DNA of 34,955 bases from a virus (Duplodnaviria; Caudoviricetes), in IMG/VR virus record IMGVR_UViG_3300030376_004325, positions 1-34,955 of that record; one strand, 5' to 3'. The position numbers and the translations under genes were made by a program. This document shows positions 1 through 15,026 of this stretch, piece after piece. The notes under the pieces were generated by a model, which was not told the origin of the DNA, ran no database searches, and saw only the letters and a program-made list of their open reading frames with translations. Each line of letters begins with the position of its first letter. Position 1 is the stretch's first letter.

Positions 1-213
1 GAGAGGGAGACGTTTAAGCGATTCCCCTACCCAGAGGACAAGCCCCAGATGATAGCCGTCTACCGAGAGATCGGTAAGATGTACGGTGAAGAGATTGGAG
101 TAGGCAGCATTCCACCGGAAAGAGTTCACCTGTTGATCTATGCTGAAGGGCTGGATCCTAATTTTAAGAAGTTCTTTGAAGGGCTTGGCCCTGATTCAAT
201 CAAGTTCGAGTAA
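1..213 (+). CDS. 3' end of a hypothetical protein (partial)
   Basis: Frame 1 open (ERETFKRFPY...DSIKFE*); TAA overlaps the next ATG (TAATG). Confidence 0.7.
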   Translation, partial: ERETFKRFPYPEDKPQMIAVYREIGKMYGEEIGVGSIPPERVHLLIYAEGLDPNFKKFFEGLGPDSIKFE

Positions 214-347
214 TGCCTAAGAAGCTGCATCGCAAACTGTCAAAGACTGCCAGCAAGAAGGGGATGTCTGGTGAGCGGAAAAAAGCCTACGTCTACGGGA
301 CGCTCGCCAAGGTCAAGAAGAAGACCGGCGGGAAAAACAGAGCCTAA
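213..347 (+). CDS. Small Lys-rich hypothetical protein (44 aa)
   Basis: Manual translation MPKKLHRKLSKTASKKGMSGERKKAYVYGTLAKVKKKTGGKNRA; coupled to upstream stop; below ORF-track cutoff. Confidence 0.65.
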   Translation: MPKKLHRKLSKTASKKGMSGERKKAYVYGTLAKVKKKTGGKNRA

Positions 348-741
348 CTTCTCCAAGGGGAGGGCAGGGGAGCTGCTGGTAGCAGCCAAGCTGCTCAACC
401 TTGGCTTCGATGTCTTCCTACCTATCTCAGATCGAACTGCTGTTGACCTGATTGCAACCTGCAACCAGCAGACTCTCAGGGTGCAGGTCAAATCTCGCTG
501 GGATCCTGTAAAGAATAAAGGGAGTCAGGTACTGCTAGGACGATGGGATCCCAGCCTTGTGGATGTTTTGATTGTCTACGTCCACCCAGCTATTTACTAC
601 ATCATCCCGGTAGAGGAACTTGAGGCCGGACGATTCAGCCTGTGCTTGTTTCCCTACGGAAGAGGGCGTAAGAGATCGGGGCAATGCCTAGAAGAGTTTT
701 TTGGACGCTGGGATCTGCTGAAATCCCAAAGTGGCCCTTAG
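271..741 (+). CDS. PD-(D/E)XK endonuclease (PDDEXK_5 / homing-endonuclease-like)
   Basis: Motifs KGRAGELLVAAKLL, FDVFLP, VDLI, RVQVKS; start uncertain. Confidence 0.8.
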   Translation: MSGKKPTSTGRSPRSRRRPAGKTEPNFSKGRAGELLVAAKLLNLGFDVFLPISDRTAVDLIATCNQQTLRVQVKSRWDPVKNKGSQVLLGRWDPSLVDVLIVYVHPAIYYIIPVEELEAGRFSLCLFPYGRGRKRSGQCLEEFFGRWDLLKSQSGP

Positions 742-796
742 AGTGGCCCCCAAAAAAAACAGCCCTATAAACAGGGCTTCAAATTAGGGTTAATGT

Positions 797-838
797 TCGA
801 TTACAAATCGAGTGCTCTACCAACTGAGCTAAACTGGC
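797..838 (-). pseudogene. 5' half of tRNA-Thr(UGU) (attP identity block)
   Basis: Minus strand GCCAGTT TA GCTCAGTTGGTAGAGC A CTCGA TTTGTAA TCGA: acceptor 5' strand, D arm, anticodon arm (TGT); no T arm or 3' acceptor strand follows. Confidence 0.92.
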
Positions 839-853
839 TTTTCCTCGAAAGGA

Positions 854-888
854 GGCGGGAAATTGATGTTTTTCCTAAAAGACATCAA
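854..888 (-). promoter_or_regulatory. Putative sigma70-type promoter for the reconstituted tRNA
   Basis: TTGATG-17 bp-CAATTT then GC-rich CCCGCC discriminator-like sequence just upstream of the tRNA half; weak -10. Confidence 0.5.
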
Positions 889-1078
889 GCGTTTTCTGTT
901 TTTTTCTTCTCATCAACCTATGCAGAGATATGCAGGCAAGGGCAGGGATACCCGCCCAAAGTGGCCCCTGAAATGGCCCCCGGTAAAATACGGCTTTTAA
1001 GGGCCACTTTTTTTATCTTTTTTTTCAAACTCTTCAAAAACCTCAGTAAACAAGAGGAAAATCATTTGATTAAAACGC

Positions 1079-1107
1079 TTGACTGTGTACACAGTGTCTA
1101 CTATGGT
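1079..1107 (+). promoter_or_regulatory. Early promoter with operator 1
   Basis: TTGACT-17 bp-TATGGT; perfect palindrome ACTGTGTACACAGT at 1082-1095. Confidence 0.8.
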
Positions 1108-1154
1108 TATCCCCGTTACGGCAATAAAGCCGGACACAAAACAAACACACAGAT

Positions 1155-1427
1155 ATGACAAAAGAACTAAAAGACGCAGTTGCCGCTATTGAGCAGCACT
1201 GGTTTGACGGAAGCGAAGCCCTCAAAGTCGATCACCTTTCCAGATCGCTCAAGTATGCAGTGAAGAGGGCAGACTTCGCAATAGATGGCGGCCCAAGTAT
1301 GTGGGAGTTCGGCAAGAACCTTGAACTGCTTGAGCTTGAGCGCAGCTTAGAGCGTAACGCTCAAATGCTCTTAGACGCTGCGGAAGTAGTGAAGCAAATA
1401 AACAAACAGGAAACAGTTACAGCCTAA
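1155..1427 (+). CDS. Hypothetical early protein
   Basis: First ORF after promoter; start within CACACAGATATG motif. Confidence 0.8.
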   Translation: MTKELKDAVAAIEQHWFDGSEALKVDHLSRSLKYAVKRADFAIDGGPSMWEFGKNLELLELERSLERNAQMLLDAAEVVKQINKQETVTA

Positions 1428-1441
1428 ACACACACACAGAT

Positions 1442-1723
1442 ATGTACTCACTAACACAAAAACAGACTGCGATTCTTTACAGAACACCGAGCAGCCTAAT
1501 GATAGAAGAAAACGGTAAGGCTGTTAAAGCGATAAGGATTTCCGGAGCAGCAGAGCACAAGTCTATGCGCTCCTTGGAAAGCAAAGGCTTGGTAACGGTA
1601 CAACCTGTTCAGGCCTTTGATAACTACTTTGTTTTTATGACAAGGAAAGGGCTGGAACAGATAGTGACTAAGCCGGGGGGTATCCTGAGATCCAACATTG
1701 AGCAAGTTTCTCTTGCAGACTGA
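1442..1723 (+). CDS. Hypothetical early protein, possible winged helix
   Basis: LTQKQ...MRSLESKGLV...VFMTRKG pattern; start within CACACAGATATG motif. Confidence 0.7.
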   Translation: MYSLTQKQTAILYRTPSSLMIEENGKAVKAIRISGAAEHKSMRSLESKGLVTVQPVQAFDNYFVFMTRKGLEQIVTKPGGILRSNIEQVSLAD

Positions 1724-1726
1724 AGT

Positions 1727-1767
1727 CACCCCTCCCCGTTGCCCTCTTCGGAGGGCATAGGGGAGTG
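1727..1767 (+). promoter_or_regulatory. Stable RNA hairpin upstream of integrase
   Basis: CTCCCC..TGCCCTC-TTCG-GAGGGCA..GGGGAG with cUUCGg loop; no U-tract. Confidence 0.65.
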
Positions 1768-1798
1768 ATGCTAAACAACATCACCCACACACACAGAT

Positions 1799-2887
1799 AT
1801 GAAAATACCGACAATAAAGAAGATCACCAAGAGGCTGACAGTTCTCCCTACGGGACGCTATCAGTATCGGGCAATGATTGACGGGGTTAGAACTAAACAC
1901 AGCCCTGAGACTACGGACAAGACAACAGCAGCCCAGCGAGTACAGAAGTGGCTGGAGGAGCTGGCAGCAGGCAACTACGACACAGTGACCAAGCTGGAGC
2001 GGAAGGAGAAGAAGGTGATGACTTTTCAGCAGTGCCTCAGCATCTACGAGCGAGAGGCAGAGGTGAAGGAGTCAACTATCATCGGCAACCGTTGTTGCTA
2101 CAAGAGGCTGCTTCGGGAGAACAACCTGAAGCTCACTGATCCGGCCAGCAAGCTCACTGCTCAGGTCTTGAAGAAGTGGGTGAAGAGCTGCGTAGGCAGG
2201 TTTGGAGATGATGAGGAGAAGGCCAAGCGGAAGGATAAGGCTGCCAGCATCCTCCGCTGTGCTCTCTCGATCTGGGCAGACAAGCTGCTGCAGTACTACG
2301 AGCTGCCGGAGAACTGGGACGTTCTTAACTTCAAGGTGAGCCAGACCAAGATCAAGGGCTGGGCTGCTGCCACAGATGGCAGGTATGAGAAGGCGTTCCA
2401 ATACTTCGACAGTATCAAGGATTCTGATCCCCAGCTCTACATCGCTTTCAAGCTGATGGCAGAGTATGGCCTTCGTAACAGTGAAGCCAGCAGAGCCAAG
2501 CATCATTGGCTGCTGCCTCACGTTTTCTCTGTCTTGGTCAGCAAGGTGGACGGCAAGCCCAGAGATCTCCCTTACCAATCAGAGAGCGACAGGGAGCTGT
2601 TTGAGAGCCACAACAAGGAAGGGGAGCATATCCTAGCCGGCTCTATGACAGAGCGCACAGATAAGGTCTGGAGGCGATTAAACGCCAAGCTCACAGAGCT
2701 GGGCTTTACCAACAAAAAGAAGGCTTATGATCTGCGTAAGTACTTCGGCAGTCAGGTAGCTCTTCAGACCAAATCTGTCTGGCTTGCTGCTGAGATGCTG
2801 GGCAACACCCCAGAGGTAGCTAAGGCCAACTACGTCAGTATGCTGAAGACTCCTGCCTTCAACATCAGAAAGGGGGCAGCAGCGTGA
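1799..2887 (+). CDS. int: Tyrosine recombinase / phage integrase
   Basis: YGLRNSEA (R), YDLRKYFG (HxxR variant), MLGN, ANYV (Tyr nucleophile); N-terminal arm-binding-like segment; near attP. Confidence 0.9.
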   Translation: MKIPTIKKITKRLTVLPTGRYQYRAMIDGVRTKHSPETTDKTTAAQRVQKWLEELAAGNYDTVTKLERKEKKVMTFQQCLSIYEREAEVKESTIIGNRCCYKRLLRENNLKLTDPASKLTAQVLKKWVKSCVGRFGDDEEKAKRKDKAASILRCALSIWADKLLQYYELPENWDVLNFKVSQTKIKGWAAATDGRYEKAFQYFDSIKDSDPQLYIAFKLMAEYGLRNSEASRAKHHWLLPHVFSVLVSKVDGKPRDLPYQSESDRELFESHNKEGEHILAGSMTERTDKVWRRLNAKLTELGFTNKKKAYDLRKYFGSQVALQTKSVWLAAEMLGNTPEVAKANYVSMLKTPAFNIRKGAAA

Positions 2888-3255
2888 AACTAATCAGCAC
2901 AATAGCCCTCTGTGGCCTCGTATTTGGCTGGGTAGTGTCAAGACCCTATGCAACTGAAACAGAGGCTGTAGCGAGCTATTACGGGGCTAAATACGCAGGC
3001 CGGCCAACAGCATCGCATCACCTGAACTGGAAGTACTCTTACTTCGATCCTGAGAAGCTGACAGCAGCTCACAAGACGCTGCCCTTCGGGACTAAGCTGA
3101 AGGTGAGACTTGGGCCAAAGTCGGTGATTGTTGTGATCACAGACCGGGGGCCTTTCATAAAAGGGAGGGATCTGGATCTCTCTCGTAAAGCCTTCCAGCA
3201 GCTCTGCCACACAGATGCCGGGATCCTGAAGGTAAAGGTGGAGATCGTAAAATAG
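2884..3255 (+). CDS. rlpA: RlpA-family lytic transglycosylase (double-psi beta-barrel) with hydrophobic N-terminus
   Basis: ASYYG, GRPTAS, LTAAHKTLPFGT, ITDRGPF, LDLSRKAF signatures. Confidence 0.93.
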   Translation: MKLISTIALCGLVFGWVVSRPYATETEAVASYYGAKYAGRPTASHHLNWKYSYFDPEKLTAAHKTLPFGTKLKVRLGPKSVIVVITDRGPFIKGRDLDLSRKAFQQLCHTDAGILKVKVEIVK

Positions 3256-3288
3256 AGCAACGGTTTTTTAACTGTTGCAATCTGTTGC

Positions 3289-3326
3289 AACTCTCCTGTT
3301 TTTTTTGAAGGCAGGAGGGTTTTTTT
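3289..3326 (+). terminator. Intrinsic terminator of the int-rlpA operon
   Basis: AACTCTCCTG / CAGGAGGGTT stem followed by T-run. Confidence 0.65.
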
Positions 3327-3351
3327 GTGTTTTATTATTGCACTACTTTTA

Positions 3352-3381
3352 TTGACAGTGTACACAGTTTTCACCTATTGG
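3352..3381 (+). promoter_or_regulatory. Promoter with operator 2
   Basis: TTGACA immediately followed by GTGTACACAGT (3358-3368); -10 weak. Confidence 0.65.
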
Positions 3382-3418
3382 ACTGTATTTGTCCCAGCTT
3401 AAAAACTAAAATACACAG

Positions 3419-3613
3419 ATGAAATTACTGATTGATGCGGAGCAATCAAGTTCTCTGAAAGAGGCAGAGAGAACTACGGGGAAAACAAAAGAAGAAATAT
3501 TACAGCTCTGTTTTTCGACGCACCTTCTTAAAGAGCTTGGCAGCCGCCGCCTTACGTCCTTCCTCAGAGTTAATGACTTCATCGAGGTTGAGTCTGATAC
3601 AATTTTCGACTAG
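3419..3613 (+). CDS. Small RHH-like protein, overlapping the repressor antisense
   Basis: MKLLID...LKEAERTTGKTKEEILQLC strand-helix-G-helix pattern; own promoter/operator; ACACAGATG start context. Confidence 0.6.
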   Translation: MKLLIDAEQSSSLKEAERTTGKTKEEILQLCFSTHLLKELGSRRLTSFLRVNDFIEVESDTIFD

Positions 3614-3724
3614 ATCAGTTTTGGTAGTCCCAAGATAGTCGGAGGCAGCCTCAAGCAACTCGTTCAGATCCGCATCAAAGCGGAAGTGTACCAGTTCTTT
3701 GTTTTTCTTGGCCTTGGCGGGCAT
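3500..3724 (-). CDS. Ribbon-helix-helix transcriptional regulator, probable immunity repressor
   Basis: LVHFRFDADLNELLEAASDYLGTTKTDLVENCI (Arc/CopG pattern); only convincing minus-strand gene; divergent arrangement. Confidence 0.8.
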   Translation of the reverse strand: MPAKAKKNKELVHFRFDADLNELLEAASDYLGTTKTDLVENCIRLNLDEVINSEEGRKAAAAKLFKKVRRKTEL

Positions 3725-3733
3725 AACGGCGGG

Positions 3734-3762
3734 AGGCTTGCAAAGCGCGTGTACACAGTCAA
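3734..3762 (-). promoter_or_regulatory. Leftward promoter with operator 3
   Basis: Minus-strand TTGACT followed by GTGTACAC; operator GTGTACACAGT at 3749-3759; predicted -10 ends about 10 nt before ATG (near-leaderless); -10 weak. Confidence 0.6.
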
Positions 3763-3809
3763 CCTCTTTTTTCAGTACATATTAAACCTCAATTATTTAA
3801 AAAAACCCC

Positions 3810-3840
3810 TTGCCTATTCAGTAGCCACAGTGTACACAGT
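3810..3840 (+). promoter_or_regulatory. Rightward promoter with operator 4
   Basis: TTGCCT-17 bp-TACACA; operator GTGTACACAGT at 3830-3840 covers the -10. Confidence 0.6.
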
Positions 3841-3868
3841 TTGCACGCCTATCACTGGCGTGAATGTT

Positions 3869-4021
3869 ATGAGTTATCAGGAGGTAGAGGAGGAAAAAAG
3901 GAAGAGCGTTCACTATCGGTTTCCGCTCTTTGTCATTAGACGGTTAAGGGCATTAGCTAAGTCGAGGAGTATGACAATGACAGGCGTGCTTGTTGAGCTG
4001 GTCTCTCGCGCAAAGCTATGA
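3869..4021 (+). CDS. Ribbon-helix-helix regulator (Cro/Arc-like role), 50 aa
   Basis: KSVHYRFPLFVIRRLRALAKSRSMTMTGVLVELV; ATG 3869 preferred to track start 3686. Confidence 0.8.
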   Translation: MSYQEVEEEKRKSVHYRFPLFVIRRLRALAKSRSMTMTGVLVELVSRAKL

Positions 4022-4134
4022 ACCAGCTCCTTCTAACTAGGACAGTAAGATGCAGGGTTTTTCTTAGTTTGTCCCTGCGAGCACAAGCGTCTCACTCCTC
4101 TACCTCCAACCCTCAAGGAGGATCCCAGTGGTAA
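4018..4134 (+). CDS. Possible 38-aa coupling/leader ORF
   Basis: ATGA overlap with upstream stop; its stop overlaps the start of xis (GTGGTAA). Confidence 0.4.
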   Translation: MNQLLLTRTVRCRVFLSLSLRAQASHSSTSNPQGGSQW

Positions 4135-4289
4135 CTCATATCTCAGTGCAGGCTGCCGCGAAGAGGCTCTCAGTGTCTCCTGACACCATCAGAAGGGCGA
4201 TTAAGGCCAACACCTTGAAAGCGGTAAAACTCAGCCCTCAGATCACAAGAATCAACGTCAAGCATTTGGAGCAATGGGTGGCAAATTAA
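4128..4289 (+). CDS. xis: Excisionase-family (HTH_17-like) DNA-binding protein, 53 aa
   Basis: ISVQAAAKRLSVSPDTIRRAIKANTLKAVKLSPQITRINVKHLEQWV; SD AAGGAGG at 4115-4121; absent from ORF track. Confidence 0.85.
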   Translation: MVTHISVQAAAKRLSVSPDTIRRAIKANTLKAVKLSPQITRINVKHLEQWVAN

Positions 4290-4651
4290 GCAGAGAAAAA
4301 GGCAAAAGGGGCGAACGCCAGTGGCGGGATATGCTACGGGAGTTTGGCTTCGGCAAGAGCTTCAGGAGCCAGCAGTTCTCAGGCAAGTCACCAGACGGAT
4401 CCTCTGCTGATGTCCAATGCCCTGAGCTGCCGGCTATCCACTGGGAAGTGAAGAACGTGGAGAGGCTGAACATCTGGGACGCAATCAAACAGGCTTTATT
4501 TGATAAGGCTGCCGGCAAGATCCCGGTAGTAGCTCACACCAAGAATAATTACGGCTGGCTCTGTACGCTGCCGGCTGAAGACTTTCTCAACATCCTACGC
4601 AGATCAGATCTGGTGCAGTGTGTTGAAGAACTAGAAACAAAAGATAAATAA
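4274..4651 (+). CDS. Holliday junction resolvase-like PD-(D/E)XK nuclease
   Basis: SREKGKRGER, SADV, HWEVK, LNIWDAIKQA motifs. Confidence 0.85.
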   Translation: MGGKLSREKGKRGERQWRDMLREFGFGKSFRSQQFSGKSPDGSSADVQCPELPAIHWEVKNVERLNIWDAIKQALFDKAAGKIPVVAHTKNNYGWLCTLPAEDFLNILRRSDLVQCVEELETKDK

Positions 4652-4656
4652 CAGAT

Positions 4657-5235
4657 ATGTTAATAACACAAAAGGAGAAGAAAGAGTATGAACTAGCCCC
4701 AGAGGGAATGCTTACAGCCGTCTGTGTCGATGTGATCGACATAGGTGAAGCTATGGGAGTGCAGCCTGATGATCTAGGTCGCTACTGTGTACCCAGCAAA
4801 AACCCTGCTTGGCAGCCTAAGCCGAGGGCCAGATTGGTCTTTGAGCTGGAGACTAAGATGCAGGACGGTAGACCGTTTGCAATATCAGCAGATTTCCCTG
4901 CCAGCCTTTTCAAACCAGAACCGGGGCAGACGGGGCAGATTGCGAAGCTACGGGACAATCTGGATAACTGGGGGGTGAAACTACCCACAGAGGGCAATAT
5001 CGACCTGAAGGGGCTTCTACTGGGCAAAGGGGCTACTCTTAACGTCAAGCATAACCCTGACGATAACGGCAGAGTCTGGGCAAACGTCTCAACAATTAAC
5101 CCAGAGACTAAAGCGTTGGAACCCTCCGGCGAGTGGGATCCAACTGCAGCCAGAGATCGGATAAAGGAGCGAGCACTAAAAAACACAGTGCAGGCTGCTA
5201 CTCAGTCAGTGACTGAGGATAACCAACCCTTCTAA
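4657..5235 (+). CDS. Putative ssDNA-binding / replication protein
   Basis: APEG..AVCVDVID, LVFEL, LLGK.ATLNV, WANV; acidic tail ending DNQPF. Confidence 0.7.
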   Translation: MLITQKEKKEYELAPEGMLTAVCVDVIDIGEAMGVQPDDLGRYCVPSKNPAWQPKPRARLVFELETKMQDGRPFAISADFPASLFKPEPGQTGQIAKLRDNLDNWGVKLPTEGNIDLKGLLLGKGATLNVKHNPDDNGRVWANVSTINPETKALEPSGEWDPTAARDRIKERALKNTVQAATQSVTEDNQPF

Positions 5236-5252
5236 TCAGTGAGGACACAGAT

Positions 5253-6101
5253 ATGTTAATAGTACAGCCAAAGAAAATTGAGGCTAAGGGCCAAAGCGGG
5301 GGCCACTGGTACACAGCCAGTGGCTCTCCGCTACATACCCAGCCAGATGGGAAGAACACCACACTGCGACACGCTAGGAAACAGGATCTTTACCCTTCAG
5401 TGACCACACTGCTGGGGATCCTAGACAAGCCACAGCTAACCAAGTGGAAGTGCGACAAGTGTATCGAGGAGAGTTATTACAAGAGGCCACTGGAGGACGA
5501 AGATCTGCAAGGCTACAAGAATCGGATCCACCACAACCTGAAAGGGGAGCAGGGCGAGATCCTAGACTTCGGCACTAGAGTTCACAACCAGATTGAGGAT
5601 TACAACAATGGCATCTTCAATCACGAAAACGATCCTGACGTTCTGCCCTATGTCGTGAAATACATAGAGTGGTCTAAGGATAGACTTGTGAAGGTAATGG
5701 CGGCTGAGAAGGTTGTAGTGAATCACAGGTACGGATATGCCGGCACTGTCGATCTGGTTGGCCAAACAAAATACAACAAGTTCCCCTCGATGCTGATCGA
5801 CTTCAAGACGCAGAACGTAAAGGGGAGTAAAGCTAACTTTTACGATACTTGGGCCTTACAGTTGGCAGCTTATCGCAAGGCATTCAAGCCAATGCCGGCT
5901 TGTATGTCACTGGTAATAAACTCAGCCAAGCCGGAGGCTCCAGTAGAGAAGATTTGGACAACTGAGGAGATGAAAGACGCTTGGAGTATGTTCAGTAAGG
6001 CATTGGAGATCTGGCAGCTTCAAAAGAAATACAAGCCAACTCTGGGAAGGCTGCAGCCTCTGGATCCCAACAACCTAGAGGAGGCTGCTGGTGAGCGATA
6101 A
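5253..6101 (+). CDS. PD-(D/E)XK exonuclease (Cas4/RecB-like)
   Basis: YPSVTTLLG, GTRVH, YAGTVDL, IDFKT, LQLAAY. Confidence 0.88.
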   Translation: MLIVQPKKIEAKGQSGGHWYTASGSPLHTQPDGKNTTLRHARKQDLYPSVTTLLGILDKPQLTKWKCDKCIEESYYKRPLEDEDLQGYKNRIHHNLKGEQGEILDFGTRVHNQIEDYNNGIFNHENDPDVLPYVVKYIEWSKDRLVKVMAAEKVVVNHRYGYAGTVDLVGQTKYNKFPSMLIDFKTQNVKGSKANFYDTWALQLAAYRKAFKPMPACMSLVINSAKPEAPVEKIWTTEEMKDAWSMFSKALEIWQLQKKYKPTLGRLQPLDPNNLEEAAGER

Positions 6102-6264
6102 GCATCAGGTAATTCAAACAGCTCCAGACGGCTCAGATCACGCCCCTTGCTTCGGCAAGGGGGATCTGGGGGAGTTTAAGAGAAAGCTGGAGCGAGTGCT
6201 GGACAAACGAGGGTTAAAACAGAAATCAAGGTTGAAATATGGCAAGCAAACGAAAGGCAAGTAA
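6091..6264 (+). CDS. Hypothetical protein (57 aa)
   Basis: GTG with GAGGAGG SD; stop overlaps next ATG (TAATG); contains a cUUCGg hairpin near 6135-6167. Confidence 0.6.
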   Translation: MSDKHQVIQTAPDGSDHAPCFGKGDLGEFKRKLERVLDKRGLKQKSRLKYGKQTKGK

Positions 6265-6464
6265 TGAAAATAATCAGCAGGGAGCAGCTACCAGAAAACT
6301 CAATTCAGTTCAGCGAACCCTGTCAGTCAGCAAGCGAAAGCTGGATAATCGAGAATATGGTGAAGGATATGAAGGAAGCAGGGAAGACCTTCGCAGTGAC
6401 AAGGGAACAGAGGAAGCTGAAGGGGCAAGAGAGGGACTTTCTGATCCTGTGGAAGGTGCTTTAA
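6264..6464 (+). CDS. Hypothetical protein (66 aa)
   Basis: Translationally coupled to upstream ORF; fills gap before GTG 6470. Confidence 0.6.
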   Translation: MKIISREQLPENSIQFSEPCQSASESWIIENMVKDMKEAGKTFAVTREQRKLKGQERDFLILWKVL

Positions 6465-6469
6465 CCAAC

Positions 6470-6826
6470 GTGCCTGAAAACCCCCCTCTGCCTCTTTATG
6501 AGGCTAATCAGATAATCACTGCAGCAGAGAAATACTGGGGTTTAGATTTTGGTGAAATCAGAGGCAAAAGAAGGAAGTTTCACATTGTTTGGGCTAGGTA
6601 CATCGTATGCTCAATTTTAAACAGGAAGGGCTACACTGTAGGAGCTATCGACACTGTGCTGAACAAGAAGAGAGGAGCAGCAAGGCACGCTTTGAAAGCG
6701 TTTGATTCTATCACTAAAACATACCCAAAATACAAGGATCAGGCAGTACAGTTTGATCGTTATCTCTGGAATAAACAGACAGCTAATTCCAGAGAAGGCT
6801 ACCGTTCTGTAGCTGCAAACCGTTAA
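6470..6826 (+). CDS. DnaA C-terminal (domain IV)-like HTH protein
   Basis: IITAAEKYWGL..GEIRGKRRKFHIVWARYIV...GYTVGAI pattern; GTG 6470 preferred to track start 6239. Confidence 0.7.
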   Translation: MPENPPLPLYEANQIITAAEKYWGLDFGEIRGKRRKFHIVWARYIVCSILNRKGYTVGAIDTVLNKKRGAARHALKAFDSITKTYPKYKDQAVQFDRYLWNKQTANSREGYRSVAANR

Positions 6827-6844
6827 GGGTGAGAGGGTTAGATG

Positions 6845-7025
6845 CCTTTTTTTCGTAATATATAACTAATATAACTAATAACAGTATATATATGATTATT
6901 ACTTTAAATAAACCTGTATCTACTTTTAGTACTAAAAGTAATAATAGTACTATTACTAGAATAGATAATAACCTAGTTAAGAATAATAATAATACTGATA
7001 CTGATAGTAATAATAATAATAAGAT
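6845..7025. other. AT-rich palindromic tract, putative replication origin
   Basis: Very AT-rich; perfect palindromes TACTTTTAGTACTAAAAGTA (6921-6940) and TAATAGTACTATTA (6942-6955); AAT repeats. Confidence 0.55.
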
Positions 7026-7353
7026 TACAGAAGTATACAGAGAACTATCTAGGGGAGAAGTGTGGGGATTCAAGCAGCAGGTGGAGATGCTGCAGAAGCG
7101 GAAGCGAGAGCTGGAGGAGGCTGGGGTCTACTGCGTCAGCGGATCTAACCGGATCCGGCAGGAGCACAAGGCTGAGTACCGGGAGCTGCTGGATGCTATC
7201 AGCATCTTGGAGCAGAAGGCTGCCGGTAAGGTCAACCCTAAGCCAGCCAGCCAGAAGGCTGCCAGTAAGCCTCAGCAGCAACGGCAGAAGCTCTCTGACG
7301 CTGAGAGGCTGCAGTTTGCTGAACAGCTTGCAGAATTAAGGAGAAGCCTCTAG
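6892..7353 (+). CDS. Hypothetical protein, possibly replication-associated
   Basis: Asn/Thr-rich N-terminus over AT tract, helical C-terminus; start uncertain. Confidence 0.6.
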   Translation: MIITLNKPVSTFSTKSNNSTITRIDNNLVKNNNNTDTDSNNNNKITEVYRELSRGEVWGFKQQVEMLQKRKRELEEAGVYCVSGSNRIRQEHKAEYRELLDAISILEQKAAGKVNPKPASQKAASKPQQQRQKLSDAERLQFAEQLAELRRSL

Positions 7354-7432
7354 AAGCCTCTGTAAGGCATTAGTAGACTGTGAGTACTGTGATGACACTA
7401 AAGAGAAATAAAAAGGCACTGGAGGGCTATCT

Positions 7433-7630
7433 ATGGCTCAGGAAAAGCATATTGCTAACCAACAACTGATGACAGAACTGCAAGAGGCGGAGAAAAGCCT
7501 AGCCAGAGAACTGGCAGGTAAGGAAGGACAGGCAGCAGAAATAATCAGGAGAGGACTGCTGCAACTGCAGAAGGTGAAGAACGCAGAAGGGGAGATCTTG
7601 ATGAAGATAGGGGAGAAGCTATGGCAGTGA
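7433..7630 (+). CDS. Hypothetical protein
   Basis: GGAGG SD; overlaps next gene. Confidence 0.7.
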   Translation: MAQEKHIANQQLMTELQEAEKSLARELAGKEGQAAEIIRRGLLQLQKVKNAEGEILMKIGEKLWQ

Positions 7631-7824
7631 ACAAAGACGGGGAGAAAATCCCACCAATGACGGCAAGAATGCTATTTATGCAAGGCGATTCAATACCGTA
7701 TATTGCCAAATACACCGGAAGACCAAAGCAAGAAGTGGAGGAGGCTCTGAGGTTTGAAATCAGAGAGTTACTCGACTACTGCAGAAAGCACCGATATGGC
7801 AGCAAAGAAGAAAAAAACAGCTAA
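7621..7824 (+). CDS. Small HTH-like protein
   Basis: LFMQGDSIPYIAKYTGRPKQEVEEAL HTH pattern. Confidence 0.65.
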   Translation: MAVNKDGEKIPPMTARMLFMQGDSIPYIAKYTGRPKQEVEEALRFEIRELLDYCRKHRYGSKEEKNS

Positions 7825-8737
7825 GAAGAAGCTGCCCAGAAGGGTGAAGCAGACAGACAAAGCTGTAGCGCAGATGTCTGAGGGAGAAAGGATTGAGAGA
7901 GCGCAGCATCTTGAAACGATTCACCTGCCTAAGTCAGTGATGACAGTTACAAGAGATGTGGCTAGAGGGAAACTGATGGGAAGACCGACAGATTACACTC
8001 CTGAAATAGTTGACTCTTTACTGCGATATATTGCTGCAGGCTTACCGATAGAGAGAGCTGCTGCAGCCACTGGAATTACTAGAGATACGCTTTACAGGTG
8101 GAAAAAAACATTCCCTGACTTTTCGGACAGCATAGCGCACGCAGAGAGTCAATATGCCAACCTCTGCCACATAACTATCAACGAGCAAATCGTCAATGGT
8201 GACGGCCACTTGGCCCTGAAAACACTACAGTCTCGCTTCAGTAAAGACTACAGCACTAGCAAGAAGGTGGAGATGCAGACGATGTCTTTCTCTTCGACGA
8301 TCTCACCTGAGCAACTGCTAGAGATGCAGCAGCAACGTAATGCTCTGGACTCATCATCTGACTATGAATCGAATGTTATTGATGTGGATGCTAAGGATCC
8401 TGAGAGGTTGGGGGCCAATCTAGGGGCCAATCCTAGCCAGCCAGAACAAGAGGGGGGCAGCCCCACAACAGGGGAGGGGGTTGATTCCGCCCCCCACCCC
8501 CCTCCTAACCCTCGCACACCTGACTCTCCCCCTCCTAATTTCTCCACAGAATATCAGAAGCCTGACGCTGATCCTGTACCAGCAGAATCGAGGCTGTACT
8601 GCCTGCAATGCAGCAAGAGCAACCCAGTGGAGAAGCTGGAGATACTGGAGGTCAGGCGGGATGATTATTATGACCACTTTGCTAGGTTTGAATGCTTCTG
8701 TGGGCATCGTGGAGAGAGTCCTGTTTTAGGTGGCTGA
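7796..8737 (+). CDS. terS: Terminase small subunit with C-terminal Pro-rich linker and Zn-ribbon-like motif
   Basis: GRPTDYTPE, AAAATGITRDTLYRW, FPDFSD; upstream of terL; CLQC...CFCG. Confidence 0.8.
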   Translation: MAAKKKKTAKKKLPRRVKQTDKAVAQMSEGERIERAQHLETIHLPKSVMTVTRDVARGKLMGRPTDYTPEIVDSLLRYIAAGLPIERAAAATGITRDTLYRWKKTFPDFSDSIAHAESQYANLCHITINEQIVNGDGHLALKTLQSRFSKDYSTSKKVEMQTMSFSSTISPEQLLEMQQQRNALDSSSDYESNVIDVDAKDPERLGANLGANPSQPEQEGGSPTTGEGVDSAPHPPPNPRTPDSPPPNFSTEYQKPDADPVPAESRLYCLQCSKSNPVEKLEILEVRRDDYYDHFARFECFCGHRGESPVLGG

Positions 8738-9017
8738 TGTTGTCCAGAAGACGCTGGAGCTATTTGGCGGCAGGGTTGTGCCGGAGTGGTATATGAAGCT
8801 AGAGGAGGGATATGCGGATAGCTGGGAGGAGCAGAGGCGGCAGCATAGGCCGGCAGGGGTGGACAGTGCCAAGCAGTATTGGACAGAGTTGAGCTTGAGC
8901 CTCCTGATGCAGCCAAAGCCGGACAAGGGGATGGTGAGGACAGCGATAGAGGCAACGAAGATTGGCAACAAGGATTTGCATCGGAAGCTGAAGGAGAAGC
9001 TGAAGATACTGAGGTGA
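8730..9017 (+). CDS. Hypothetical protein
   Basis: Overlaps both neighbours in operon fashion. Confidence 0.65.
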   Translation: MADVVQKTLELFGGRVVPEWYMKLEEGYADSWEEQRRQHRPAGVDSAKQYWTELSLSLLMQPKPDKGMVRTAIEATKIGNKDLHRKLKEKLKILR

Positions 9018-9478
9018 ACGAGGAGGCAGCAGAGAAGGAGAAGGAGGCTGTAGTGAGGTATATCGCTCACAGCCTCAAGCAGGGGAAGAAGCTGTATTAT
9101 GAGGGCAGCGGGGAGCAGATGAGTCATCTGGACGGGATCCTGACCACAGTGGACTATCTGGAGGCTGCAGTAGAGGTGAAGTGGCGGCGGTTTGATTACA
9201 AGGCACTGATGGAGCAGCACAGTGGTGAGATGCTGCTGGGGAGTGACAAGGTGCTGGCAGGGAAGGCGTTTGCCTTTGCCTTTAGAAAGCCTACCAAGCT
9301 GCTCTATTTGTTGAGTGACTGCCTGCTGGTGCAGGAGTTGGTTAGTGGCAGGGGAGACACTCCTGAGATGATTCGGGAGGCTTGGGTGGAAGGCCCAAAG
9401 AGTGATGACAATAGAAGCAAAATCAGAAAAGCAAACTGCTACTACAAAGCAGAAACAGCAGAAAAGATCCGACTCTGA
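9014..9478 (+). CDS. Putative PD-(D/E)XK-fold nuclease
   Basis: SHLDG...AAVEVKWR; GTG 9014 coupled to upstream stop (GTGA). Confidence 0.6.
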   Translation: MNEEAAEKEKEAVVRYIAHSLKQGKKLYYEGSGEQMSHLDGILTTVDYLEAAVEVKWRRFDYKALMEQHSGEMLLGSDKVLAGKAFAFAFRKPTKLLYLLSDCLLVQELVSGRGDTPEMIREAWVEGPKSDDNRSKIRKANCYYKAETAEKIRL

Positions 9479-10838
9479 CTGTGATGTTTTCGCAGAGAAG
9501 ATCTTTAAGCTAAAGCTGCACCCTTGGCAGAAGAAGGTGCTGCAGAGCCTCAGCAAGCCGAAGACTAGGATAGCCCTGAAGGCAGCCAACGGTTCAGGGA
9601 AGACGGCGATGTGTGCGGCTCCTGCAGCCTTGTGGCACGCCCTGCTGTATCCCAACAGCGTTTGCGTTACGACTTCGGGGGTATACCGGCAGGTGAAGGA
9701 ACAGATGTGGCCAACGATCAGGAGCTTGGCCCGGAAGGTTGGAGGCTTGGGGATCCAGATCAATCAGACTGAGCTGAGTACACCTAACGGCAGCAGGGTG
9801 ATAGGGTTCAGTACAGACGATCCCGGCAGGTTTGAGGGTTGGCACGCTGATAACCTTTTGATGATAATTGATGAGGCTAAGACGGTGAAGGATGAGATCT
9901 TTATGGCTTTGGAACGATGCCAGCCAAATAGGGTGCTACTGATGTCATCACCGGGAGGCTGTAAAGGACAGTTTTATAGATGCTTCAGTAAGGAACAGGA
10001 TTTCTGGGATCTGCATACGGTTACAGCCTATGACTGTCCGCATATAGAAAAGGAGTGGATAGATAACCAGATAGAGAAATGGGGAGCAAGTCACCCACTG
10101 ATTGCTTCGATGATCAGAGCGGAATTTATGGAGGAGTCAGGAGAGAGCACAGTGATCCCTTGGGATAGCCTGATGCACTGTCTGGAGAATCCTCCAAAGA
10201 AACAGAAGGGTGAGGTAGTGGCTGCTGTAGACTTTGCAGCAGGAGCTGATGAGAACGTCCTCTGCGTCAGGAACGGCAACCACATCACCAAGCTCCTGAG
10301 CTGGAGAGATCGGAATACGATGGCAGCCTGTGGCAGGTTTGCCTTGGAGTTTGAGAGGGCTGGGCTAAAGCCTCAACAGATCTTTTGTGATGCTGGAGGC
10401 TTGGGGCTGCCAATGGCACAGCAGTTGGCAGAAATGGGTTGGCCTATGCACCAGATCAATTTAGGCAGTCGAGCACACGAACCTGACAGGTTTGCCAATA
10501 GATCGGCAGAGATGTGGTTTAACGCAGCCAGACAGATCGAGAAGTCGGATATTGTTGTGCCTGATGATGAGATCCTGCACGCCCAGCTAACCAACCGGAG
10601 AGTGGCAACAACTAAGACAGGGAAGCTAAATCTGGAGAGCAAAGCAGAATGCAGGGCAAGAGGCTTCAGCAGCCCAGACAGGGCTGATGCCTTTGTAATG
10701 GCAGCTTCCTACACTTCGGAGTTCCTGATGCAGGAGGGGCCAAGGCAGGCCACTCTGGAGGATATATTTGAGGAGGGGCTGCTGGAGTTAAACGGAGAGA
10801 ATCAACTAATCAATTCAATGGGGATCAACACGGGATGA
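9402..10838 (+). CDS. terL: Terminase large subunit
   Basis: LHPWQ, Walker A AANGSGKT, Walker B LMIIDEA, nuclease AVDFAAGADE and SPDRADA. Confidence 0.95.
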   Translation: MMTIEAKSEKQTATTKQKQQKRSDSDCDVFAEKIFKLKLHPWQKKVLQSLSKPKTRIALKAANGSGKTAMCAAPAALWHALLYPNSVCVTTSGVYRQVKEQMWPTIRSLARKVGGLGIQINQTELSTPNGSRVIGFSTDDPGRFEGWHADNLLMIIDEAKTVKDEIFMALERCQPNRVLLMSSPGGCKGQFYRCFSKEQDFWDLHTVTAYDCPHIEKEWIDNQIEKWGASHPLIASMIRAEFMEESGESTVIPWDSLMHCLENPPKKQKGEVVAAVDFAAGADENVLCVRNGNHITKLLSWRDRNTMAACGRFALEFERAGLKPQQIFCDAGGLGLPMAQQLAEMGWPMHQINLGSRAHEPDRFANRSAEMWFNAARQIEKSDIVVPDDEILHAQLTNRRVATTKTGKLNLESKAECRARGFSSPDRADAFVMAASYTSEFLMQEGPRQATLEDIFEEGLLELNGENQLINSMGINTG

Positions 10839-11059
10839 TAGGAATAATTAGAGTAATACTGGAGATACTGAAAGAGGCTTTTGGTTATGCAAAAGAAACA
10901 GAAAAAACACAGATACAGAAGCAGGCTGCTGATCGTCAGTCTGATAAGCGCAGCCGTCTTGACAAGTGGCTGCAAGACCCCGATTCAGTTGGACAACACG
11001 AAGACCCTGATAGAGGGGAACCCGAAGGGATTCAGGGACGCGATGAAGAGCAGCCCTGA
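10835..11059 (+). CDS. Putative i-spanin (Rz-like)
   Basis: Hydrophobic N-terminus then charged helix; overlapped out of frame by a lipoprotein gene. Confidence 0.5.
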   Translation: MIGIIRVILEILKEAFGYAKETEKTQIQKQAADRQSDKRSRLDKWLQDPDSVGQHEDPDRGEPEGIQGRDEEQP

Positions 11060-11135
11060 AGGCCGGAAGTTTGTAGAGGACACTCTGGAGGTGATTATAG
11101 ATCTGGAGTACGAGATTGAGAAAGCAGTGGAGTGA
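10887..11135 (+). CDS. Lipoprotein, putative o-spanin (Rz1-like)
   Basis: Basic n-region, hydrophobic h-region, lipobox LTSG-C. Confidence 0.65.
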   Translation: MQKKQKKHRYRSRLLIVSLISAAVLTSGCKTPIQLDNTKTLIEGNPKGFRDAMKSSPEGRKFVEDTLEVIIDLEYEIEKAVE

Positions 11136-11662
11136 GCTGGATGCAAATAATCGGACTGAGCGGAACCAAGCGAAGCGGTAAGGATACGGTCTGCCGGCTG
11201 ATGCAGGAGATCACCAGAAAGGGCCGGCTCAAGCGGGAGGCATTTGCTGACAACCTCAAGCAGGAGGTTGCTGAGATGCTAAACGTCAAGGTGGAGATGA
11301 TTGAGCAGGACAAGGAGAGGTTTAGACCGATGCTGCAGTGGTACGGTGCAGACTACTGCCGGCACTACTTCGGTAAATCCTACTGGATTGATCAGATGTT
11401 TGATAAAGTAAGATACAACTTTGACAAGAAGCAGATCACTGTAATCACCGATGTCAGGTATCCCAACGAAGCCCACTTCATCCGAAGCAGGGGCGTTCTG
11501 GTGAACGTACAGAGAGACACAGGGCTGCAGGATTCACACAGCTCAGAGAACGCCCTGAAAGACTTTGATGGCTACGATTACACTATCAACAACAACGAAG
11601 GCTTGGAGGAGCTGAAGAAGAAAGTGCAAAAGTTGTTTTGTGAAATCGACGCTATTGCCTAG
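11132..11662 (+). CDS. Deoxynucleoside monophosphate kinase (T4 gp1-like)
   Basis: IIGLSGTKRSGKDT, AFADNLK, RPMLQWYG, ITDVRYPNEA, HSSE. Confidence 0.9.
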   Translation: MSWMQIIGLSGTKRSGKDTVCRLMQEITRKGRLKREAFADNLKQEVAEMLNVKVEMIEQDKERFRPMLQWYGADYCRHYFGKSYWIDQMFDKVRYNFDKKQITVITDVRYPNEAHFIRSRGVLVNVQRDTGLQDSHSSENALKDFDGYDYTINNNEGLEELKKKVQKLFCEIDAIA

Positions 11663-11671
11663 AGTGGCTGT

Positions 11672-11755
11672 GTTGACTGCGGTCTGAATTAGTTCTTATT
11701 CGCGGTTTACATATCTGTGTGGCCGTCCCCTTTTTCTGAGGGGGCGGCTTTTTTT
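11672..11755 (+). ncRNA. Candidate trans-acting antisense sRNA targeting early-gene start codons
   Basis: Candidate TTGTGA-16 bp-TAGAGT promoter (11638-11665); imperfect hairpin 11675-11707; seed TACATATCTGTGTG 11708-11721; terminator 11721-11755. 5' end uncertain. Confidence 0.7.
11721..11755 (+). terminator. Intrinsic terminator
   Basis: GCCGTCCCCT / AGGGGGCGGC stem plus T7. Confidence 0.85.
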
Positions 11756-11923
11756 ATGTCTCCAGAAGATCAAGCAACAGCATTCAGTCAGGATCTGGCT
11801 AAACTAATAGACAGATACGCTCAAGAGTTCGAGCTGAATTACGCAACAATTATCGGCGTTCTGGCGATGCACCAGACAATTTTATCACTGGACGCTGTTA
11901 CCGCCGGAGATGCGGATAAATAA
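11756..11923 (+). CDS. Hypothetical protein (55 aa)
   Basis: ATG 11756; stop abuts portal start. Confidence 0.7.
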   Translation: MSPEDQATAFSQDLAKLIDRYAQEFELNYATIIGVLAMHQTILSLDAVTAGDADK

Positions 11924-13807
11924 ATGCACAGAGAAAAATTAAACGCCAGTGTCCTGCAGGATCTGGCAGATCGTAGCCTCTGGGACACTCGCCAGAGAAT
12001 GTTTTATGAGATGAGGCATCACGGTCTTCGTCGCAAGACGAAGCCTTGGCCAACTGCCTCAGATGTTCACTTTCCGCTGAGTGACTCAATCATCGAGAAA
12101 CTCAAGCCCCACTATTTTCAGCAGCTATTCGCTACTGATCTGGTAGCCAGCTTTATCCCCAACAGCCCACAGGTTGCAGAGCTAACCACTGCAGCAGCTC
12201 AGTGGTTTGATCACCGCCTCAAGCAGAAGAGCAATCTGGAGACTGAGATCCTTACTGTGATCGACAGCACACTGGTAAGTGGTACGGGGTTGATGAAAGT
12301 GGTTTGGAATCACCACAAGAAGTGTTTGGATTACTACGCTGTAGATCCTCAGCACTTGATCGTTCCACCCAACACTAGGAGCTTGGAGACGGCTGACAGG
12401 ATCACGCAGGTGAGCACCTACACAGTGGAGGCTTACAAGCGTAACAAGACTCTAGATCAGGATCCTGAAGTGCTGGAGCAGATTGTTGGCAGCTACGATG
12501 AAGAGTCTGGGGATCTAACAACCAGAGAGATCAAGTATCAGCGGGAGGGTTTAACCTTCGACAGCAAGGGCCGGATCATCGTCTGGGAAGTTTACTATCG
12601 CTGCGAGGAATCAGGGGAGTGGAGGATCTGCACCTACTCACCTACACAGCCGGATCTGAATCTGCGTCCTGTGATGAAGATCCCGTATAACCACGGCAAG
12701 CCTCCCTTTGTTGCTTTCCCTTACGAGATTAAGGATGCCGGATATTACAGCAGCCGGGGAGTGGTGGAACAGGTGGCAATATTTGAGGCACAGCTCTGCA
12801 AGCTGTTGAACGAGAAGAATGACGCAATGACTCTCTTCAATCAGCCTCTGTACCGTACCAGCAGAGAGATCCCCAACGCCGGCAATATCCGAATGTCACC
12901 GGGGCAGATCCTGCCCTACGACATCCAGCCGGTAGCCCAGCAATCCCCTCCAATCAGCTTTGATCAGCAGATGAACCTGATGCGGGAGATTGCCCAGCAA
13001 AGGATTAGCACGCCGGACTTTGGGTTGAACCAGACGCTCGCCTTTCCAGAACGCAGAACAGCCACAGAGGTCGAGGCAGTAAGCAATCTTTCACAGCAAA
13101 GCACAGACTTGAGGATGCGGATCTTCCGCATTGCTTTGGGGAAACTGTACCGTATGAGCTGGAGCTTACTGCAGCAGTACGATTCTACAGATCTGAACTA
13201 CTGGTATCTGGACACTGCACAGGAGATTCCACAGGAAGCACTGGGGCAGAACTATACGATCCAGCCAACTGGATCCGCTGACGGGGTGAATAAAACCTTT
13301 CTGTTCAACAAGGCAATGCAACGCCTGCAGATGTTTAACAATGACCCCTTTATCAACCAGAGCCAACTCAGGAAGTCGGTTCTGGAAGCTGATGACGCGA
13401 CACTGGTCAAGAGACTATTTCAGGATCCAAATATCCAAGCGTCTGATCAGGCTGAACAACAAGCCGAAGAGATCGGCATACTAAGGCTTGGCTTCCCGGC
13501 ACAGGTTAAGCCGGCTGACGATGATCTGGTGCATATCCAAACGGTGATGCAGTACATCCAACAGAGAGCTGCAGAAGGGGCAGCCCCTGAGCCAATAGAG
13601 GGGCAGATGCTACAGCAACATTTAGCTGCACACGTTACGCAGTTGAAGGAGAAGGATCCCAAAGCCGGCAGGGAGATCGAGCGGGATCTAAGCGAGTTTT
13701 TTGAGCAGGCAGCTCAAGCAGCAAATGAAGCGACTAACACAGATATGGAGAACGCTGAGGGCGTTCAACAGGAACAACGGATACCCGCAACCCCCGGAGT
13801 GGGGTGA
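11924..13807 (+). CDS. Portal protein
   Basis: 627 aa after terL; KPWPTASD, GTGLMKV, SRGVVE, RTATEV; Gln-rich tail. Confidence 0.9.
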   Translation: MHREKLNASVLQDLADRSLWDTRQRMFYEMRHHGLRRKTKPWPTASDVHFPLSDSIIEKLKPHYFQQLFATDLVASFIPNSPQVAELTTAAAQWFDHRLKQKSNLETEILTVIDSTLVSGTGLMKVVWNHHKKCLDYYAVDPQHLIVPPNTRSLETADRITQVSTYTVEAYKRNKTLDQDPEVLEQIVGSYDEESGDLTTREIKYQREGLTFDSKGRIIVWEVYYRCEESGEWRICTYSPTQPDLNLRPVMKIPYNHGKPPFVAFPYEIKDAGYYSSRGVVEQVAIFEAQLCKLLNEKNDAMTLFNQPLYRTSREIPNAGNIRMSPGQILPYDIQPVAQQSPPISFDQQMNLMREIAQQRISTPDFGLNQTLAFPERRTATEVEAVSNLSQQSTDLRMRIFRIALGKLYRMSWSLLQQYDSTDLNYWYLDTAQEIPQEALGQNYTIQPTGSADGVNKTFLFNKAMQRLQMFNNDPFINQSQLRKSVLEADDATLVKRLFQDPNIQASDQAEQQAEEIGILRLGFPAQVKPADDDLVHIQTVMQYIQQRAAEGAAPEPIEGQMLQQHLAAHVTQLKEKDPKAGREIERDLSEFFEQAAQAANEATNTDMENAEGVQQEQRIPATPGVG

Positions 13808-14075
13808 TCAGGATACTGAAGCACTAAGAGCTTTCTTCAGTTCCTCCACAGGGCAGAAATTAAATAGTTCACTTCTACAGTTGCACCTGCACCAAATGGA
13901 AAGACTAATTTCGAGCAGCAAGTCGAATCTGACTTATGAAGCAGGTTGGGCTGGAGGATTTAAGGGTGCTCTTGCATCTATTGACGGGCTAATGGTGAGA
14001 CAACCAGAAAAAGCCCCGGTAGCTGAGGGAGTGACAGATGACCTAGCTTGGTTATTGAACCCTAGAAAATTCTAA
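13725..14075 (+). CDS. Hypothetical head-module protein
   Basis: Between portal and scaffold; ATG 13725 preferred. Confidence 0.7.
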   Translation: MKRLTQIWRTLRAFNRNNGYPQPPEWGDQDTEALRAFFSSSTGQKLNSSLLQLHLHQMERLISSSKSNLTYEAGWAGGFKGALASIDGLMVRQPEKAPVAEGVTDDLAWLLNPRKF

Positions 14076-14081
14076 AAATTT

Positions 14082-15026
14082 ATGTCTGACACAGGTACAG
14101 TACAAGCTGGTGAGGTAGAAATCACACGCGATCAGCTATTAGGGCAGCTCTCTGAAATAGATGGCAATGCCCCCGCGAGTGACACTGCGAGCACCCCAAC
14201 CTCTGACAACGCAGCAGAGGAACCAACTAGCGAGACGGTCAACGTAGAAGACAAAGCCAAGGAAGAAGCTCCTGAGCCACAGGATGCGCCAGAAGAGCCT
14301 TCTGAGGAAAAACCAAAGTCGAAGTATACCAGAGCTAAAAAGAGCCAAGAGAGGGCTAATAAGAGCTGGAAAGAAGTAAACGCTGCCAAAGAGGACTTAA
14401 AGGCAGAGCAAGCAAAGTTGGCTGAAGAACGTCAACAGCTTGAAGCTAAAAAAGCAGATGCGTTTTCAGATATTCAGCAACGTAAGGAAGCCGCACAATT
14501 CACCCCAGATGACTACGAGCAGATAGCGAAGGAGTACCGGGAAGAAGGGCGCGATGACCTTGCAGAGTTAGCACTACAGAAAGCTCAAACAGCTAGGGAT
14601 ACGATACAGCAGCAGGAAGTTCTCAACGCGCAGAGGACGGTTATGGAGCAATGGGAGTCAAACTTGAGTCAGCAGGTGAAGGATAATCCTGAACTGAAGA
14701 ATCAAGACTCCGAACTGTATAAATACACTTCTGAACTGCTTGATCGTAAGAAGATTTTGGCAACCTACCCAGAGGGCATCAACGATGCAGTGGAAGCTGC
14801 TAAGGCGTTTCTTAAAGCGAAGAAAGCGGATGACTTGGAGGTCGAAGTGAATCGTCTCAAGAAAGAGAACGAGGAGCTAAACGGCAAATTACAAATAAAC
14901 GGAACAACCGTTGACCAATCGGGTAGATTGGAATCCTTTAACGATATGACAGCAGAACGCCAAAGAAGCGAACTGCTGAAGATAGTCAAGGATCACGATC
15001 AACGGGGTGCAGCTATAAACTTATAA
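14082..15026 (+). CDS. Capsid scaffolding protein
   Basis: Acidic coiled-coil protein directly upstream of the capsid gene. Confidence 0.8.
   Translation: MSDTGTVQAGEVEITRDQLLGQLSEIDGNAPASDTASTPTSDNAAEEPTSETVNVEDKAKEEAPEPQDAPEEPSEEKPKSKYTRAKKSQERANKSWKEVNAAKEDLKAEQAKLAEERQQLEAKKADAFSDIQQRKEAAQFTPDDYEQIAKEYREEGRDDLAELALQKAQTARDTIQQQEVLNAQRTVMEQWESNLSQQVKDNPELKNQDSELYKYTSELLDRKKILATYPEGINDAVEAAKAFLKAKKADDLEVEVNRLKKENEELNGKLQINGTTVDQSGRLESFNDMTAERQRSELLKIVKDHDQRGAAINL

Follow-up and report, generated by a model that had tools for sequence, protein, structure and literature searches.

Upstream of the portal gene of the phage studied here, just ahead of its structural operon, lies a ten-nucleotide sequence, CATATCTGTG (11710-11719), that mirrors its own early genes: the reverse complement recurs as a tag over five of their start codons. 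The DNA analysed (hereafter the window), 34,955 bases long, makes up an entire virus record that is 96% complete; among its gene products are an integrase, a repressor-like protein, an excisionase, RusA, an exonuclease, a terminase, a dNMP kinase and a capsid protein. As it encodes an integrase, a repressor-like protein and an excisionase, and has a partial tRNA that we read as the attachment site, the phage is very probably temperate. Comparison of its relatives indicates that the locus (Table 1) is real and conserved, and very probably a functional RNA element.

Table 1. Positions in the window of the predicted RNA, of the tagged start codons and of neighbouring features.
Feature	Position	Strand	Remarks
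Partial tRNA (5' half, anticodon TGT, Thr)	778..838	-	Inferred attachment site; 25.4 bits, below gathering score
Integrase-operon promoter, TTGACT-17-TATGGT	1079..1107	+	Operator-like palindrome in spacer (1085-1101)
Tag on ORF1155 start	1146..1157	+	12 nt; swappable cassette gene
Tag on ORF1442 start	1433..1446	+	14 nt; swappable cassette gene
Tag on integrase start	1790..1801	+	12 nt; kept in integrases down to 52% identity
Integrase	1799..2887	+	phrog_1, E 1e-12
Weaker tag on start of 192-aa ORF ("SSB-like"; PHROG of unknown function)	4651..4660	+	10 nt; near-identical phages only
Tag on exonuclease start	5245..5256	+	12 nt; near-identical phages only
Deoxynucleoside monophosphate kinase	11132..11662	+	phrog_139; upstream neighbour of element
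Candidate promoter, TTGTGA (11638-11643), 16 nt, TAGAGT (11660-11665)	11638..11665	+	Inferred; without operator palindrome
Predicted small RNA	11672..11755	+	About 84 nt (80-110 nt in relatives)
5' hairpin	11672..11710	+	Core stem 11675-11682/11700-11707; pairing conserved, sequence and length variable
Invariant seed CATATCTGTG	11710..11719	+	Longest match in window genome 11708-11721
Intrinsic terminator hairpin and T run	11721..11755	+	Next ORF from 11756
Portal protein	11924..13807	+	29.5% to annotated portals; between terminase and capsid; near head of structural operon

Some features of the surrounding genome deserve mention. The attachment site of the window is the inverted 5' half of a tRNA-Thr, a less usual arrangement; in the clade of a related genome (G001) it is the 3' half of a tRNA-Lys, upstream of an integrase of the same family (L169). 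Short repeats, GCAGAGATAT, lie between the attachment site and the promoter (921-950), stand in tandem in L107 and L108, have a different sequence in the tRNA-Lys clade and are possibly arm sites for integrase or excisionase; the outgroup genome G002 has tandem GGTGACAT repeats near its attachment site. An operator-like palindrome, GTGTACAC, recurs at early promoters (1085-1101, 3358-3365, 3749-3756 and 3830-3837), reads GTAGACAC in G001 and has a similar counterpart in G002. It is probably a repressor site, and a repressor-like ORF is found at 3500-3724 on the - strand (phrog_876, E 4e-4). Two further ORFs are candidate regulators: a small helix-turn-helix-like one at 7621-7824, with a sigma region 4-like fold as a lead only, and one at 6239-6826 with a weak match to the DnaA C-terminal helix-turn-helix (E 3.5e-4). 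Several relatives came from Tara-labelled contigs. The host search returned one genome contig, with a portal 51% identical, and no host names, and the partial tRNA gave no match above 95% among 401 genomes of one phylum.

Could the resemblance between seed and tag be fortuitous? All of the matches listed by the first-pass annotation, which had proposed the pairing, were present on re-checking. The reverse complement of 11708-11721 is matched over 14 nt at ORF1442, the longest match, over 12 nt at ORF1155, the integrase and the exonuclease and over 10 nt at the SSB-like gene, as well as over 11 nt at 13737-13747, in ORF13725, and 8 nt at 3413-3420, at ORF3419. Two more sites were found, one of 11 nt at an internal in-frame ATG (25408-25418) and one of 9 nt (33708-33716). 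The core ACAGATATG occurs eight times on the + strand, five of them being start codons, and once on the - strand, at the element itself. With up to two mismatches allowed, TACATATCTGTG gave 12 matches against a mean of 1.96 in shuffled sequence (largest 6), and none of 100 shuffles reached 12. The tag precedes 5 of 35 hand-set ATG starts vs 3 of 430 other + strand ATGs (Fisher p 8.7e-5), and CATATCTGT is the sole 9-mer antisense to five start regions. The chance expectation for the 10-mer is 0.008-0.016 copies on a genome strand and, within the 93-nt gap, 2e-5 to 4e-5 copies. An unbiased k-mer scan against all start regions ranked the seed first in the window and, at 10 nt, also in G001, with nothing comparable in G002 or G003. 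Chance does not explain the match. The exact matches of 10-14 nt lie 6.5-10.6 kb from the element, so that the locus is separate from its targets.

The seed is also conserved. A portal search retained 80 of 111 loci, 27 with a portal identity of at least 80% and 53 at 72% or below, five in each group being too short upstream for assessment. CATATCTGTG stood upstream of the portal in all 22 assessable loci of the first group and in none of the 48 of the second, and it was invariant while the flanking sequence diverged. A metagenome pattern scan gave 58 matches, of which 25 were added as family loci and 33, lacking any gene of this phage family, were dropped as chance; it is uninformative on seed invariance since the seed was fixed in the pattern. 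A seed-free pattern scan, covering 51 of 64 parts, found no family member with a changed seed. Indeed, no compensatory change of seed and tag was found in that scan, in the portal-anchored comparison or in a covariance-model search of 74 sources, where the model served as a sequence profile as its automatic structure mispaired the seed; both partners are invariant. Seed and tagged start occur on one contig in the window, G001, L136, L004 and L164. The near-complete genomes of the outgroup, G002 and G003, lack both, and no different seed/tag pair was found in them, the best match in G002 being one of 10 nt inside the kinase gene.

At the same place, 28 of the 53 outgroup loci have a TTGCnn hexamer, a variable spacer of 12-13 nt, an inverted repeat and a T run, which points to an origin of the seed within the spacer of a pre-existing element. 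In L016-L040 and L069-L080 this unit, upstream of the portal operon, reads TTGCCA, 12-13 nt, an ACGCACC...GGTGCGT hairpin and a T run, and is possibly a late control element of some kind. The outgroup genomes also repeat leaders without an intergenic mirror, G002 with ACAAAGCCATGA at two starts (L102 14684-14693 and 14993-15001) and G003 with another leader (L105 near 8907 and 9167).

The first-pass annotation had placed the seed between a hairpin and an intrinsic terminator, and both are present: the predicted fold of 11672-11758 (-35.6 kcal/mol, z -6.6) has a hairpin on either side of the seed, and the terminator (11721-11749; 12 pairs and a T run) tops the terminator scan list for 1-14500. 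When folded from the candidate promoter start, the seed is predicted to be unpaired with a probability of 0.70-0.88 in 17 of 17 representatives; these were hand-picked from 27 distinct elements and have a common ancestry. The 5' hairpin had a z of -2.6 or lower in 15 of the 17, and the + strand folded better than the - strand in all 20 elements compared. Across relatives the pairs of the 5' hairpin stem switch among C-G, U-A and U-G, and the terminator has C-G/U-A switches at four positions; two-sided changes are found in both hairpins, in pair tables that derive from single-sequence folds and so lean towards pairing. The GTT before the seed is invariant, and its pairing partners vary.

The promoter that had been suggested upstream of the element is a candidate with a constant position: in all 17 representatives the same pattern (TTG, 16-17 nt, xAxxxT or TAxxxx) stops 6 nt short of the hairpin base, the background being 0.0045 per position. 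This offset is constant though the distance from promoter to seed ranges from 43 to 71 nt, and it is kept in one clade with an unrelated upstream gene. The pattern itself is weak, was set after seeing the data, is present in its strict form in 12 of the 17 and overlaps coding sequence or a stop codon; in the window, TAGAGT overlaps the kinase stop codon. A second candidate, TTGACT-18-TATTCG at 11673, which would give a 47-nt RNA, was rejected as its offset is kept in only 2 of 17. Contigs from two RNA runs (12 runs listed) leave the element uncovered within 11000-12600, in a type of data from which short RNAs are lost.

Which starts would such an RNA recognize? ACAGAT-ATG opens every ORF from the operon promoter through the integrase, that is 19 of 19 starts in the eight loci that hold the integrase start. 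Eleven of these starts belong to cassette genes, which apart from three pairs are unrelated to one another; ten of them were scanned against Pfam, and no significant family was found. The tag is kept in integrases that are 52-58% identical, including those of phages using the tRNA-Lys site, and with or without a preceding Shine-Dalgarno sequence. It is absent from the RlpA-like gene behind the integrase and from the capsid and scaffold starts. Among distinct orthologue contexts, 4 of 16 had the exonuclease tag and 3 of 14 the SSB-like tag; all of these came from phages at least 94% identical, and even there the tags vary. (In L164, near 3019, the SSB-like ORF has 442 codons vs 192, perhaps from a fusion or an assembly error.) The full tag at ORF3419 recurred in none of nine contexts and that in ORF13725 in 4 of 38, all 90% identical or more; we reject the latter as a general target, as we do the 25408 site, which is altered in G001. 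Binding predicted for the whole RNA against 47 starts agrees in part with the proposed list: ORF1442, the integrase, ORF1155 and the exonuclease were the best four (-17.3 to -14.8 kcal/mol), the next start having -10.8, while the SSB-like start ranked ninth (-8.8 kcal/mol), not above background. The dispersed five-gene regulon of the first-pass annotation is therefore too wide in general; from these comparisons, the conserved target set would be the integrase operon, from promoter to integrase, plus lineage-specific additions.

We propose that 11672-11755 is transcribed from its own promoter into an RNA of about 84 nt, starting near 11672 and ending at the terminator, whose single-stranded seed would pair with the ACACAGAU-AUG tag on the starts of the integrase and the genes before it. 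Small RNAs that cover start codons block 30S loading, and the pairing here would span about -8 to +4 of each tagged start, with the same outcome. The RNA would be present in the lysogen and would accumulate after DNA entry, setting a threshold below which leaky integrase-operon mRNA stays mute in the lysogen, so that the integrase and cassette proteins would be made only in a short pulse right after entry or induction. The lineage of the window would have added the exonuclease, and perhaps the SSB-like gene, to the target set. An operator-like palindrome marks the integrase-operon promoter but is missing from the candidate RNA promoter, and no such site was found in the three element promoter regions checked, which favours expression in the lysogen. 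As no other promoter-like pattern was found between terminator and portal, the RNA may also be the terminated leader of the structural operon, like the StxS RNA discussed below.

To this reading as a whole, an own-promoter RNA of about 84 nt that is present in the lysogen and mutes the integrase operon, we assign a probability of roughly 0.55. Repression of tagged starts by base pairing, whichever its timing, is a good deal safer, and we regard it as likely. At the level of sequence the support consists of exact complementarity, an invariant seed, a tag on every operon start and flanking hairpins that keep their pairs. From these features we infer transcription, pairing in the cell and repression, and, with less support, the presence of the RNA in the lysogen and its role as a leader. 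As a prediction from DNA, a trans-encoded RNA that pairs with start codons is well supported by its conservation, structure and promoter placement.

The same pairing could be timed differently. The seed may be the 3' end of, or cut from, a long lytic transcript that starts from a promoter near 3830 and runs through the terminase and kinase genes; it would then appear only after the lytic operon has been read, and would turn off the integrase and recombination genes at the early-to-late switch. In 9 of the 12 elements looked at, the stop codon of the upstream gene indeed falls within the predicted RNA, 11-45 nt in, only weak + strand terminators are listed between 3830 and 11721, and lambda lowers its integrase post-transcriptionally in lytic growth, according to the accessible part of that account (PMC5300877). 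However, the promoter-like pattern tracks the hairpin base in every representative, and the seed becomes less open when 75 nt of upstream context are included (0.30-0.77). We consider this timing clearly the less likely of the two. In four loci the kinase tails that overlap the RNA (L059, L060, L061 and L063) have an alanine-rich C-terminus, two ending in FVAA-stop, which we take to resemble a tmRNA-type degradation tag.

Alternatively, the 10-mer might be a DNA site bound by a phage protein, serving for activation in a late promoter and for repression at the early genes. The outgroup unit described above keeps this alive at low odds: the seed occupies the corresponding spacer, preceded by TTGACA-like letters, the GTT before it is invariant while its pairing partners are not, and ORF7621 resembles a helix-turn-helix protein (as a lead only). 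A protein site would nonetheless leave it strange that the conserved copies all stand in exact ATG register on the coding strand, also far from promoters. Moreover, the real operator-like palindrome is another sequence, no -10 hexamer lies at 17-18 nt and the outgroup spacer is variable, so that we think this explanation improbable. Scarcely better placed, and if anything a little behind it, is the idea of a sensor, in which early mRNA pairing with the seed would alter terminator read-through into the structural operon. The unit stands directly before that operon, and terminator and portal have no further promoter-like pattern between them, which would suit such a device, but the invariant 10 nt end short of the terminator stem, no alternative antiterminator fold was found and the start-codon register is left unexplained.

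It could also be that the tags merely mark sites of recombination or provide a good start context, and that the inverted copy is a functionless leader left by a leftward gene since lost. Between promoter and integrase lies a swappable cassette with 0-3 small unknown genes (window 1155-1723; L095, L106, L107, L168, L169 and L170); its swaps break at tagged leaders (joints 1160 and 1162 to 1427), and recombination by itself could thus maintain the repeated tags. Since outgroup leaders also repeat without a mirror, no RNA is required for the tag to be repeated; one is called for only by the inverted copy, which is invariant and set in a structured unit. In unrelated phages (L178, L199, L209, L225, L251, L255, L285 and others) terminators of the same type are often found on the other strand from a gene leader that has a ribosome-binding site, and cis-antisense RNAs would result from this layout. 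At the element, a leftward mini-gene was tried and rejected: across 20 elements the leftward frame has 1-39 codons, with no peptide common across clades and no consistently placed promoter. Since, in addition, a relic should neither keep its seed invariant among diverging flanks nor leave the capsid and scaffold starts untagged, we find it very doubtful. Finally, host mRNAs as the main targets, with the phage tags secondary, have a parallel in StxS (PMC7547250) and SviR (10.1101/2022.04.08.487710), which in the available parts of these reports act across genomes, but nothing favours a host target and the phage's own tag is exactly complementary on all 19 operon starts, which makes this the least probable explanation.

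If small-RNA repression of the integrase operon holds, it would be a compact way to time integration. More tentatively, and with odds well short of even, the tag may act as a barcode, being both the crossover point for early-gene swaps and the binding site of the RNA, with RNA cross-immunity across the clade. Each newly acquired early gene would then come under the same switch on arrival. Since the seed is common to phages with different attachment sites and with integrases about 55% alike, a prophage would mute the integrase operon of incoming clade members, a cross-immunity that would be RNA-based and repressor-independent. The start-codon-tag rule can be tested by reporter fusions without the host, and the seed/tag mirror offers a sequence signature for regulons in uncultured phages.

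How does the element compare with described phage RNAs? StxS, of Shiga-toxin lambdoid phages, is a terminated late-promoter transcript in the part of its description available (PMC7547250), and the element would similarly give a short RNA ended by a terminator just ahead of late genes, from a candidate promoter. StxS is present in the lysogen and represses a phage gene at its ribosome-binding site, as we propose here; yet it is a 74-nt RNA that is cut by RNase E from a 258-nt transcript and binds Hfq, whereas the RNA of the element is predicted to be primary. Its targets in the same account are stx1B and the host rpoS, whereas the element complements one tag on many distant starts of an early operon (PMC7547250). 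As for a Q-like antiterminator, no Q family match was found among the window ORFs scanned, and ORF7621 is no more than a helix-turn-helix lead.

The c4 RNA has a cloverleaf fold with two pairing sites and is processed by RNase P, and the P4 CI RNA is another phage RNA whose short exposed complementarity controls a lysis-lysogeny function. The predicted element differs from c4 in having two hairpins, one seed and targets 6-10 kb away. It would share with P1/P7 c4 (RF01695) the short exposed complementarity and the control of a phage lysis-lysogeny function, but c4, in the accessible portions of these sources, controls the antirepressor operon that contains it, whereas the element has kinase and portal neighbours and integrase-operon targets (PMC8201110, PMC2864571). 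The Rfam c4 model RF01695 had no match at E up to 1 in the window or up to 5 in five element-bearing loci, and Rfam gave no family for the element in either; a weak match to BcKCsr2 (18-21 bits vs a cut-off of 40) was set aside. Without an Rfam match and in a different context, the element is, as judged from sequence, not a c4 RNA.

Sar, OOP and aQ are cis-encoded, and no conserved leftward gene lies opposite the element to suggest a cis-antisense origin of the Sar or OOP type. These antisense RNAs of P22 (Sar) and lambda (OOP), with aQ, lower a regulator, Sar by blocking translation initiation, but have one target each in the part of the source available, whereas the element would be trans-encoded with several (PMC12197685). 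The sib element of lambda serves the end proposed here, a post-transcriptional lowering of integrase from an early promoter, though as a cis element downstream of int, as far as the accessible text goes, whereas our RNA would act in trans on the start codon (PMC5300877). SviR, from the PLE satellite, resembles the predicted RNA in being a conserved small RNA that acts in trans on several targets, among them operons of the mobile element that encodes it, but it uses different seeds per target and acts on the helper phage, and a start-codon tag is undescribed in the portion available (10.1101/2022.04.08.487710).

A literature search, with subscription papers mostly outside it, found neither the element described nor any case of a start-codon tag that a single phage RNA mirrors. 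With its separate locus, conserved accessible seed and intrinsic terminator, the element is predicted to work like a trans-encoded base-pairing small RNA. Described phage antisense regulators, as far as the available parts of their reports extend, act on one adjacent gene or operon or use different seeds for each target; here, one invariant seed would control the integrase and a changing set of unrelated early genes through a tag on their start codons.
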